Source: Chiloscyllium plagiosum (taxonomy: Eukaryota). From it: 64,000 nt of DNA. The notes beneath the pieces were generated by a model, which saw nothing but the letters and a program-made list of their open reading frames with translations, was not told the origin of the DNA and searched no databases. The DNA lies in NCBI RefSeq assembly GCF_004010195.1, contig NC_057719.1, positions 20,484,731 to 20,548,730 of the forward strand. Direction: 5' to 3'. Below, piece after piece: positions 2,864 through 64,000 of this stretch (positions are counted from its first letter, which is position 1; each line of letters opens with the position of its first letter). The position numbers were made by a program, and so were the translations under genes.

Positions 2864-2931
2864 GATACTCCTGCTCCTCGGATGCTGCTTGACCTGCTGT
2901 GCTTTTCCAGCATCATGTTATCAATTTGACT
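2864..2931 (+). mobile_element. Penelope-like element terminal fragment (family A)
   Basis: CTCCTGCTCCTCGGATGCTGCTTGACCTGCTGTGCTTTTCCAGCA matches the termini of the GIY-YIG-bearing copies at 42.9 and 61.5 kb. Confidence 0.75.
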
Positions 2932-6814: not shown

Positions 6815-7433
6815 GTCAAGATTAGAGTAGTGCTGGAAAAGCACAGCAGGTCAGGCAGCATTCGAGGAGCAGGAAAATCGATGTTTCGGGCAAAAGCCCT
6901 TCATCAGGAATGAGGCTGGGAGCCTCGGGGGTGGAGAGATAAATGGGAGGGGAGGTGGGGCTGGGGGGGAAGGTAGCTAAGAGTGCAATAGGTGGGATGG
7001 AGGAAGAGGTAAAGGTGACAGTCGAAGAGGAGGGTGCAGCAGATAGATGGGAAGGAAGATTGACAGGTGGGACAGGTCATGAGGATGGTGCTGAGCTGGA
7101 AGGTTGAAAGTGGGGTAAGGTGAGGTGAGGGGAAATGAGGAAACTGGTGAAGTCTATATTGATGGAGTTGGAGGGTCCTGAAGCAGAAGATGAGGCATTC
7201 TTCCTCCAGGCGTTGGGTGGTGAGGGAGTGGCGATGGAGGAGGCCCAGGACCTGCAAGTCCTCGGCAGAGTGGGAAGGGGAGTTGAAATGTTCAGCCACG
7301 GGACGGTGGGGTTGATTGGTATGGGACAAAACGTTGAATTTCCTGCTCCTCGGATGCTGCCTGACCTCCTGTGCATTTTCAGCATCACTTTAATCTTGAC
7401 TCTAATCTCCAGCATCTGCAGTACCCACTTCTG
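6815..7433. mobile_element. Penelope-like element fold-back insertion (minus-strand GIY-YIG C-terminus and terminus, then plus-strand terminus)
   Basis: Minus ORF PVAEHFNSPSHS..RLEEECLIF. Inverted terminal duplication. TSD ACTAGTCA(C/G)ATATA at 6801-6814 and 7434-7447. Confidence 0.85.
6876..6911 (-). ncRNA. Minimal hammerhead ribozyme motif (GUC mutated to AUC)
   Basis: Minus strand ATTC CTGATGA A GGGC TTTT GCCC GAAA C ATC GATT. Confidence 0.65.
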
Positions 7434-8304
7434 ACTAGTCAGATATATAAACACAAATTATCACAACAAATTTCTCTTTAATATATTTCTTTTAAATACG
7501 ATAAAATAGCATAAAAGCTTGTATAAGTAAGTTAACTTCTTAATTTTTATGTGCTTATCAAAATGAACTAATATATTGAAATTAACCTCAGTTATCTAAA
7601 TTGCAGAAACTCACTTCCAACAGGTAGATATGCGATTGATCATGAAAACAATTCTTCTACCCTCACTGTATGAATAAAGCAACATAATTATTCTATTCTA
7701 GGGTAAAATATTTAATTAGCTCAAAGCACAACATGTGTTAAAGCAATATTAATATCTCATGCAATAAAGATAATTTTTGTAAAGCAGTGTGGCATAATTT
7801 GAAAACAGTTTGATTCAATTAAATGCACCACAAAGACGAGTTTAACTAGGATTGTGAATATTTCATTTCTAGCTTAGATAAGTTCTAGACTCAGAAACAG
7901 CACTTTCCATCAAATCTACTTTTACATCTTTTCATATTTTTCCAGTGAGTGAAGAACAATTGCATAAAAACAATTGCATAAAACATCCTCACAATGGAAT
8001 ATCGTAGTTTGTTAAATTCGAATTTCAGATAACATAAAGATTTTTCTTGACATGTTCTGTTATCTTCCATGACTTAACTGAAATGCTGTTTTTAATTGGC
8101 AGAACAAGGGTATTAAATCAAGAAAACTGACAAAGACTCAATTCAGAAGTTAGAGTAGATGGATGGTTAGGTGCAAGATGATGGATCAGATTGCAAGCTT
8201 TGCCCAAAAGTAAAGCCTGCTCTGATTGAGCTTCCATGAGAGTGTCCTACCTATTGGCCAGGAGTCCAGGGTTCAAATACCATCCACTCCAGAAATGGGT
8301 AATA

Positions 8305-11159: not shown

Positions 11160-11580
11160 AGGCAGAGGTGGGTACTGCAAATGCTGGGGATTAGACTCAA
11201 GATTAGAGTGGTGCTGGAAAAGCACAGCAGATCAGGCAGCATCTGAGGAGCAGGAAAATTGATATTTCAGACAAAAGCCCTGCATCAGGAGCCCTTACTA
11301 TGCTGTTGGTGCTGAGGTTGGAGAAATCTGAGTTCATCTCTTGTGGTTGGAGGGTTCCTAGGCGGAAGATGAGGCGCTCTTCCTCCAGCCGTCTGGAGAA
11401 ATCTGAGCTCATCTCTTGTGGTTGGAGGGCTCCTAGGCGGAAGATGAGGCACTCTTCCTCCAACCGTCTGGAGAAATCTGAGTTCATCCCTTGTGGTTGG
11501 AGGGTTCCTAGGCGGAAGATGAGGCGCTCTTCCTCCAGCCGTCTGGAGAAATCTGAGTTCATCCCTTGTGGTTGGAGGGT
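11160..11580 (-). mobile_element. Penelope-like element fragment with decayed HHR and tandemly amplified GIY-YIG C-terminal segment
   Basis: Terminus homologous to the 6815 and 63483 copies. TSD TGATGTT at 11153-11159 and 11581-11587. Confidence 0.8.
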
Positions 11581-11581
11581 T
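11319..11581. repeat. 75-bp tandem repeat, about 3.5 copies
   Basis: TGGAGAAATCTGAG recurs at 11319, 11394, 11469 and 11544. Confidence 0.95.
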
Positions 11582-61004: not shown

Positions 61005-61565
61005 CTAGCAGAGCGCTTTAGGGAACATCTCTGGGACACCTGCACCAATCAACCACACCGCCCTGTGGCCCAACATTTCAACTCCCCCTCCCACCCTGCC
61101 GAGGACATGGAGGTCCTGGGCCTCCTTCACCGCCGCTCCCTCACCACCCGACGCCTGGAGGAAGAACGCCTCATCTTCTGCCTCGGAACACTTCAACCCC
61201 AGGGCATCAATGTGGACTTCAACAGTTTCCTCATTTCCCCTTCCCCCACCTCACCCCAGTTCCAAACTTCCAGCTCAGCACTGTCCCCATGACTTGTCCG
61301 GACTTGTCCTACCTGCCTATCTCCTTTTCCACCTATCCACTCCACCCTCTCCTCCCTGACCTATCACCTTCATCCCCTCCCCCACTCACCCTATTGTACT
61401 CTATGCTACTTTCTCCCCACCCCCACCCTCCTCCAGCTTATCTCTCCACGCTTCAGGCTCTCTGCCTTTATTTCTGATGAAGGGCTTTTGCCCGAAACAT
61501 CGATTTTACTGCTCCTCGGATGCTGCCTGAACTGCTGTGCTCTTCCAGCACCACTAATCCAGAAT
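61005..61565 (+). mobile_element. PLE family A fragment (GIY-YIG C-terminus, pyrimidine tract, HHR) inside a decayed V-SINE (~60925-61636)
   Basis: AERFREHLWD..PVAQHFNSPSH..RRLEEERLIFCLGTLQPQGINVDF, typical PLE GIY-YIG C-terminal motifs. Confidence 0.88.
61470..61505 (+). ncRNA. Minimal hammerhead ribozyme motif (GUC mutated to AUC)
   Basis: ATTT CTGATGA A GGGC TTTT GCCC GAAA C ATC GATT. Confidence 0.65.
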
Positions 61566-62635
61566 AAGTCTCATAAATGTTGGGCTCCAGGGATAGGGTG
61601 GGATGCTCTTTGGAGAGTTGGTGCAGACACAGTGGTCTGGTGCACTGTATATATTTTAAAATTCCAGTCCAATTTGCCTGAAATTTCATTGATGTTTTAA
61701 TGTTAAATTCCATCAGCTCTCTCCCTTTCTCATTCTCTCTAGACAGCCATGTAATTTATATCCACAACCATTTTATGTAGTATTTGTCCTTTTTTGATAT
61801 AATGCACTTTGGCATTATAACATAGGAATATGGGAGTAGGCCATTTGGCCTGTCAATTTAAGAATGGCCACAGCAATTTGTGGATCTGACCCACTGTTGT
61901 AACAGTTCTTACCTTAACATTCAGCTCAGACAACATGTTGCCAGTTGTGTTGCTACAGCTGCCTGTATTGTGTCGAGGAGGTTAAACAAAGGGCAAAGTG
62001 CACAAAGGAACAGAAATGGTTCCCAGAAGGAAATCACAATCAGTTAGGTGTTCAGGGAGCTTTATGGAATTTTCAACTCAACAAGGAAGAGTGTGTGTAC
62101 AGTCTGCATTTTATGGAAGAGATGCTTGTTGAAATCTGCTGCCTGTTGAAGTGAGACTCTTCATGTTGAGGTCTGTCAACGCTGAATTTGATACCTCTCA
62201 CATTTTCCATTTTCCGATCCAGAGGTCATTGCTTGCCCAGCACAGCAGAAGAGGGACATGGCATTGCATTCTCTTTCCAGACAAAAATCAAACAGATTGT
62301 GCGTGGGGATTTTTTGGGTCAAGTGTGCATTATATTTTGCATAATGTTCATAGTTGATTTAATCTATTCTTTAAAATAGAGGGATTCAAATTGAGGGATT
62401 AATATGTGGTTCAGTCTAACAGATTTCAATGCATTTTTGAATACTGAAACCATTAATAACTGGACTGCTTTCAGCCAATGATCTGAACTGGCTCTTCCAA
62501 AGTCTCTCATGAAAAGCCTGATTCTGTGATGACTCAGAACAGGCTATTTTGTCCCTTTTAATTTTCTGACATGGGGGATTTTTGGACAGATTCCACTTTC
62601 TCTCCTGCAGACACACATGATGGGGATGTATCAGA

Positions 62636-62734
62636 TTTTGCTGAAGCTCCTCAGATGCTGCCTGAACTGCTGTGCTCTTCCAGCACCATTGATCCAGAAT
62701 CTGGTTTCCAGCATCTGCAGTCATTGTTTTTACC
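62636..62734 (+). mobile_element. 99-bp PLE family A terminal insertion
   Basis: TSD ATGTATCAGA at 62626-62635 and 62735-62744; matches 63615-63712. Confidence 0.88.
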
Positions 62735-63269
62735 ATGTATCAGACACCAGTCCATCAGAACAACAGACATCAACAGAACTCACCCTCAGTGGCAATTGAT
62801 TATCTTCCAAGAGACATATATGATGATCTGGGAGAGGACATCCAAACAAGAGGATTTTTCTTCAGGTTCTTAAGAGGATTTATCTTCATCAATGCAGTCA
62901 CATGGCACTGCTGTGTTGTTCTAACATGGATGTTGCTGTTATTCCAGTGCTATGAGTCCACGCTAGGTCTTCAAATGGCCCCATCTTCATGTTTGAGATG
63001 TGGATCCATCTCGGATTTGCAGCCAGCAGGTGCAGGGGGGTCTACGCCACCAGATGTGGACAGGTAATGTGAATTAAATAATCTTCACAAATTCATATAG
63101 ATTCAGTTTTTAAGGGAGAAGATGAGATTGAATGGCCTTTCCATGTAAGCTGGTAAATGATTAATCAAAGTTGCAGGGTGCTTAACAGTGCAACAATTTA
63201 CTATGCCCTATTATAATGGGGAAACTAAAGCCAATGTCACCAACACTATCACAAAATAATTAGCATTGC

Positions 63270-63445: not shown

Positions 63446-63542
63446 TATATAAGAACATAAGAACTAGGAGCATGAGTAGGCCATTCTGGATCAGTGGTGC
63501 TGGAAGAGCACAGCAATTCAGGCAGCATCCGAGGACAGGCAA

Positions 63543-63578
63543 AATCGACGTTTCGGGCAAAAGCCCTTCATCAGGAAT
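63543..63578 (-). ncRNA. Minimal hammerhead ribozyme motif (mirror copy)
   Basis: Exact reverse complement of 63583-63618. Confidence 0.78.
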
Positions 63579-63582
63579 ATTT

Positions 63583-63618
63583 ATTCCTGATGAAGGGCTT
63601 TTGCCCGAAACGTCGATT
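63583..63618 (+). ncRNA. Minimal hammerhead ribozyme motif
   Basis: ATTC CTGATGA A GGGC TTTT GCCC GAAA C GTC GATT; GUC at 63612-63614. Confidence 0.78.
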
Positions 63619-64000
63619 TTGCCTGTCCTCGGATGCTGCCTGAATTGCTGTGCTCTTCCAGCACCACTGATCCAGAATCTGATTTCCAGCATCTGCAGTC
63701 ATTGTTTTTACCTGCATGAGTAGGCCATCTGGTCCTTCGAGCCTGCACCGCCATTCAATAAGATCGTGGCTGATCTTTTTGTGGCCTAAGCTCCACTTAA
63801 CCACCATCTCACTGTAATCCTTAATTCCTTTACTGTTCATAACATTATCTATCTTAGCTTTAAAAGTATTCAATGAGGAAGCCTCAACTACTTCACTGGG
63901 CAGGGAATTCCACAGATTCACACCCCTCGGAGCGAAGATGTTCCTTCTCATTTCGTCCTAAATCTGCTCTGCCTAATTTTGAGGTTATACCCTTTTGTCC

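Follow-up and report, generated by a model that had tools for sequence, protein, structure and literature searches.

Can the 5' end of a short retroelement copy record the self-cleavage of the RNA from which it was made? This question is raised by an insertion at 62626..62744 of the analysed stretch of Chiloscyllium plagiosum DNA (64,000 nucleotides; hereafter the window), whose first base coincides with the first base 3' of a predicted hammerhead cut. This base is designated +1 throughout.

The insertion and its relatives in the window

The insertion consists of a family-A piece of a Penelope-like pLTR (62634..62734, plus strand; +1 to +101 from the predicted cut) placed between a left TSD (62626..62635, 10 bp) and a right TSD (62735..62744), to neither of which a strand is assigned. 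The two TSD copies are identical (10/10 bases), and the last two bases of the left one double as +1 and +2 of the element. The insert proper (62636-62734) is therefore 99 bp long, or 101 bp with the shared GA, in full agreement with the initial reading of the sequence alone (below, the sequence-only reading). When compared with +1..+101 of a long natural copy (L273), 62634-62734 carries 2 mismatches in 101 bases, and its 3' end is the common (tail) end, at which related copies also terminate. The sequence-only reading had also held that this copy lacks everything 5' of the predicted cut; this was confirmed, with the qualification that the real join may lie anywhere from +1 to +3, because GA is common to the TSD and the element. 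A lone copy beginning at +1 could have arisen by chance, and the weight of the argument lies solely in the genome-wide distribution of junctions.

Several other copies reside in the window. A family-A primary arm (63580..63712, plus strand) runs from -35 to the tail, its start lying within an upstream junction cluster described below, and its inverted partner (63483..63579, minus strand) ends near +68, without a tail. The primary arm contains an intact predicted hammerhead of the minimal type I (63583..63618, plus strand) with the architecture described in PMC4209133: the 5' strand of helix I (63583-63586), the core (63587-63593), an extra A, stem II (63595-63606), GAAA and a palindromic stem III, with the predicted cut between 63614 and 63615. 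In a long family-A copy (61044..61565, plus strand; +1 = 61502), the pLTR comes directly after the end of the ORF (its 3' part). Two B-type copies had been mentioned in the sequence-only reading. The older fragment at 2864..2915 (plus strand), said to start at GAT, does have an apparent start at +1, provided that one mismatch at +4 is accepted, and no clear TSD was seen around it. The sense arm at 7329..7437 (plus strand), which is the short arm of an inverted pair (long arm, 6826-7320), begins at about -7, as had been stated. On the minus strand at 11319-11581, a 75-base tandem repeat of Penelope ORF-end sequence is located immediately upstream of a B-type pLTR.

Identity of the element and of its ribozyme

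Judged by its sequence features, the repeat represents the pLTR of a Penelope-like retrotransposon. In long copies, the pLTR is preceded by RT-like and GIY-YIG-like sequences, i.e. the order typical of EN+ Penelope elements (RT followed by a C-terminal GIY-YIG nuclease), as indicated by a weak match of one frame (L229) to Pfam RVT_1 (E 0.0028, under the curated cut-off) and by a cysteine-containing GIY-YIG-like motif seen by eye in the same frame, for which the Pfam search returned no nuclease match. We take this motif to be GIY-YIG from the known features of such nucleases and from their description in PMC8557442. The linker between the RT and the nuclease in another copy (L398) has the form C-x4-C-x2-C; a CxxC linker, as described for Neptune and Nematis (PMC8557442), would be typical of either of these clades. 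The pLTRs occur in tandem or inverted arrangements with an optional tail, including 109 inverted pairs. Their 3' ends lie at about +101 or at +63..+68, the latter being the end of 160 of the 206 tail-less arms, while 17 copies run beyond the usual 3' end toward the start of the ORF, which begins after the tail. One family-A inverted insertion (L224) is situated within a retrovirus-like pol reading frame.

The predicted ribozyme corresponds to the minimal type-I hammerhead of PMC4209133, with a conserved core, stem II, an extra base after position 9, a palindromic stem III and NUH. Matches to the motif numbered 463 in the collected loci and the window (overlapping loci unmerged), 248 of them being of the commonest form; other families retain the stem but differ in sequence. 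An Rfam scan of the window matched no hammerhead model and gave only microRNA-like hits on the inverted repeat. Whereas a stable helix I of this ribozyme type would have 4-5 bp, that of family A comprises three pairs and one U-U mismatch, and its predicted probability within a monomer is 0.01-0.03. The region directly 3' of the cut (+5..+15) is hypervariable in this family, with at least six common variants, and -60..+4 is nearly constant. A further hammerhead family, in which stem II has 5 bp and the palindrome reads AGCU, was found at L053:40-190, L406:1834-1874 and L005:1052-1092; it also forms inverted pairs and offers a natural replicate for the junction test.

Collection of genomic copies

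We collected 598 loci (1.93 Mb), so that the counts given below rest on about 1.9 Mb of the 3.56 Gb genome. The loci were obtained with +34..+101 pieces of natural copies as queries, together with inverted partners and bystanders. Thirty loci found with a query containing the flank of the 62626 copy itself were left out of the counts because of this bias. The exact 34-base string from +1 has 347 genomic copies; the set obtained with it is conditioned on +1..+34 and was therefore analysed apart. After merging of duplicates (730 of 738 arms kept), masked arms, query loci and four arms whose junction derives from a 17-base duplication were removed. The final set consisted of 581 young family-A arms picked irrespective of their 5' end (211 long, 235 inverted, 129 direct-flank and 6 other).

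The duplication in question, of +1..+17, looks like one inherited event with microhomology. It defines a sub-lineage (L183, L237, L298, L404, L405, L408, L417 and others) that kept transposing and is present in both arms of L404 and L408. Paired arms agreed in 21/26 cases; since the ends of joined arms are generally close to each other, this concordance was given no weight.

Distribution of 5' junctions in family A

Among the 581 arms, 30 junctions fall at -16..-1 vs 110 at +1..+16 (p=1.4e-9). Expressed per base among arms still extending, the junction rate is 0.36% at -55..-38, 4.1% at -37..-29, 2.1% at -28..-18, 0.5% at -17..-9 and 0.4% at -8..-1; it reaches 3.0% at +1 and then declines to 1.4% at +2..+10 and 0.9% at +11..+20. 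There are thus two junction clusters with sharp 5' edges, and changepoints were placed at +1 (posterior 0.93; 0.92 with tail-bearing arms alone) and at -36 (posterior 0.90). The highest count at a single position is at -32 (27), followed downstream by +1 (14), +7 (14) and +12 (12), and +1 stands only modestly above its downstream neighbours (14/109, p=0.017). The sequence-only reading had proposed that a sharp peak at the cut would support cleavage and a flat distribution refute it. The distribution is not flat, rising about threefold at +1; its shape is that of a step with a 20-nt tail rather than of a sharp peak.

The step was found separately in targets, partners and bystanders, the last having no junctions at -17..-1 and 19 at +1..+20. 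It is seen in both direct-flank junctions (8 at -17..-1 vs 53 at +1..+18) and inverted ones (26 vs 69), and, when inverted pairs are merged and each insertion is counted once, 19 junctions lie upstream and 85 downstream of the cut. The 17 copies running past the tail toward the ORF include seven that begin at +9..+22 and one at -17..-1. In the separately analysed 34-base-string set (n=100), three arms begin at +1, one at -1 and two at -3, and two have inserts at the cut. Only one of 128 downstream junctions arose by internal deletion of a longer copy. At +1, the caller recognised a TSD for only two of ten flank junctions, one being an artefact of duplication, vs 24 of 47 at +2..+20. To control for the caller, long natural copies were truncated uniformly and given random flanks; in 2724 trials the ratio across the cut was 1.08, and +1 received a share of 0.068.

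In step models incorporating microhomology, +1 was the best position, 19-26 log units over no step, 6-7 over +2 and 2-3 over -1. This preference holds at three microhomology strengths; since at the strongest -1 and +5/+6 come within about 2 log units, the edge is located to within a few bases. The junctions in excess downstream of +1 amount to about 79-80 in 576 arms, which corresponds to some 14% of the arms and to about one third of the copies made from short templates; the background is about one sixth of the +1 rate. In L032, L066, L156 and L119:8846, the sequence joined at +1 is unrelated or derives from the ORF and ends in GTC or TC; these joins are probably microhomology switches, and there is also an excess at -3/-2.

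The upstream cluster

The larger of the two clusters comprises 188 junctions at -37..-18, 5' of the intact ribozyme, with a sharp 5' edge at -36 and a peak at -32. It was found in all families; examples are the copy at 63580 of the window (-35), L018, L176, L294 and L470. It likely marks the start of the capped transcript. Its size and its location upstream of the intact ribozyme indicate that uncut RNA is the main template. A transcript start at this position would account for the many SINE-like copies of 130-140 bases. An extra G at the 5' junction is known from LINE-1 work as a signature of the cap. A preceding G was found at six of eight flank junctions at -36 vs 1 of 10 at +1 (p=0.013), a pattern that would fit capped ends at -36 and uncapped ends at +1; because a G precedes only 1 of 6 junctions at -32, this reading is no more than suggestive.

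Inserts and tandem units at the cut

Non-duplication inserts of at least 2 bases were found in only three cases among 548 arms spanning -15..+20 (a count that includes the flank-biased 30-locus set and the 34-base-string set). Two of the three are A-rich and lie at the scissile bond of otherwise complete copies: the 4 bases in L074 and the 7 in L003/L060 separate -1 from +1 exactly, and the sequence on either side is normal. They fit a jump in which the enzyme leaves the cut end and continues on a 5' fragment that carries a tail, although there are just two such cases and tiny inversions could produce the same structure. A family-C insertion (L113:4090-4310) consists of three tandem units, two of which begin exactly at +1 and are joined directly to +68, with no microhomology at the join and one base difference between the units. 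Such units could be products of serial template jumps on cut RNA or of a small circle.

What produces the step at the predicted cut?

The accumulation of young copies that begin at or after the predicted cut base makes it likely that self-cut RNA was the template of some of them, and we consider it probable, with clear reservations, that the step in about 14% of family-A arms is a genuine footprint of hammerhead cleavage. The claim of the sequence-only reading that the template was the 3' product of self-cleavage is partly supported, by a step at +1 that survives the microhomology models and the caller control. It is weakened by the lack of a sharp peak, by the position of the main cluster, which lies upstream, by the other families and by a possible halt of RT at a helix whose foot is at +1. 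The low predicted probability of helix I in a monomer, the few TSDs called at +1 and the anole element, whose ribozyme is dispensable for insertion in vitro (PMC11167929), also speak against it.

Families B and C (older, bystander sample) show no step: 23 junctions lie at -17..-1 vs 23 at +1..+18, and none at +1. Their upstream cluster is present (106 junctions) and their ribozyme core is as intact as that of family A. For direct-flank junctions the counts are 9 vs 7 in B/C and 8 vs 53 in family A (contrast p=0.0008), the calls in B/C being coarser because these families are more diverged. Single-cell reads of a related organism over 61330-61566 (1284 and 0 reads) displayed no pile-up of molecule starts or ends, and the loose read ends in this interval reflect genomic junctions.

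The explanation that competes best with cleavage, although we regard it as rather unlikely, is that RT halts on uncut RNA, either at the foot of a hairpin (-27..-23 paired with -4..+1 and stacked on stem II) or at a bound protein, leaving an edge at +1. This helix is part of the predicted best fold of most family-A variants tested (pairing probability 0.2-0.6), its terminal G-U pair would fray so that copying might end at +1, and it is weaker in family C, the family with the fewest downstream junctions. However, its contribution over stem II is small, about 3 kcal/mol (-11.4 vs -8.2), and stem II, although stronger, yields no step at -8. Moreover, two B-type references fold the same helix (0.54-0.58), yet the junctions of family B are split 15 vs 18, and a stop of this kind gives no reason for A-rich inserts exactly at the scissile bond.

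A second family-A transcription start near +1..+7, from which a second capped RNA would give the downstream cluster, is improbable. The two clusters do match in width and shape, +5..+15 is the most variable part of family A, and an internal promoter is described for Drosophila Penelope (PMC2377424), but the edge falls on a site fixed beforehand by the ribozyme and the extra G of the -36 junctions is absent at +1.

The least probable of the three is that truncation at the 5' end was random, without any special RNA end, and that microhomology, CpG depletion or a preference of the endonuclease shaped the distribution. In its favour are junctional microhomology (mean about 1-2 bases among TSD cases), a CpG-rich -16..-1 segment and the ATT, the preferred cut of the anole enzyme (PMC11167929), that adjoins both clusters. 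However, microhomology simulated at the strength of the TSD cases gave a ratio of only 1.1-1.2 (at most 2.2 when very strong), whereas the observed ratio is about 3.1. If the enzyme cut before the A of ATT, the step should lie at +2, where the fit is 6-7 log units worse, and families B and C share the -20..+4 context, yet have no step. The caveat of the sequence-only reading that random truncation might suffice is thereby largely refuted for family A and retains its force for the 62626 copy taken singly. For that copy the chances of an origin from cut RNA are about even, taking into account both our confidence in the footprint and the share of the excess class among +1 junctions, which is about five sixths.

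Under the cleavage explanation, transcription would begin at about -36..-30, immediately 5' of the ribozyme, from an internal promoter like that of Drosophila Penelope (PMC2377424), and reverse transcription would begin inside the RNA and proceed to its 5' end. Most templates would be capped and uncut, giving rise to the upstream cluster, and a minority would be cut at +1, giving rise to the downstream one; loss of 0-20 bases in microhomology joining may produce the 3' tail of each. The ribozyme would probably have cut as a dimer or with the help of protein. We put forward only tentatively, as somewhat less probable than the footprint itself, a broader view: cleavage by Penelope hammerheads would take place in the germline, and the 3' product, though uncapped, would serve the enzyme of the element as a regular template. 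In this lineage, about a third of short-copy templates would have been cut, the enzyme would at times have jumped from the cut end to the 5' fragment with its A tail, and cleavage would have become more frequent in the youngest family. If this were true, past ribozyme activity in different families and species could be read, as from fossils, in junction histograms. According to PMC8557442, it is unclear what the hammerhead does in Penelope-like elements; a junction step at the site of the predicted cut would indirectly attest cleavage in vivo and could be measured in any assembled genome.

Comparison with known systems

Our literature search, whose coverage was incomplete so that an earlier mention is possible, found a junction footprint at a ribozyme cut for R2 and none for Penelope hammerheads. 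The family-A ribozyme shares with known minimal type-I hammerheads (PMC4209133) the motif, the extra base between positions 9 and 10.1, the loopless palindromic stem III and the occurrence of many dispersed single and inverted copies; in the portion of that account available to us, in vivo evidence is reported as absent and genomic 5' junctions are not mapped on the cut.

An experimental parallel is provided by PAc, a Poseidon element of the green anole (Frangieh et al. 2024, PMC11167929), whose hammerhead cleaves in vitro with the protein present and is dispensable for insertion in vitro. As described there, uncut RNA dominates and no RNA-seq reads start or end at the cut. Uncut RNA dominates here as well, but a minority class begins at the cut. 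PAc has two internal RT start sites, 3' of the hammerhead and with a tail of 30-40 bases between them, to which about +63..+68 and +101 correspond here; in contrast to PAc, the present element has a CxxC linker before the nuclease and an ORF that starts after the tail.

Non-LTR retrozymes (PMC7229834; bioRxiv 10.64898/2026.07.22.740005) are likewise short non-coding hammerhead repeats tied to Penelope pLTRs; they are described as tandem units, each with a whole ribozyme, whereas the 62626 copy is a single dispersed, TSD-flanked one without the catalytic core, and it is therefore not assigned to them. In R2 elements with HDV-like ribozymes (Eickbush et al. 2013, PMC3774820), genomic 5' junctions also record the cleavage site, and joining likewise involves microhomology with non-templated bases. 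The ribozyme and the element class are different, and cleavage makes the normal 5' end of R2, whereas here it would concern a minority of templates. The 62626 insertion is thus, by membership, an ordinary Penelope-like fragment, and what is new is the probable footprint in the population of copies to which it belongs.
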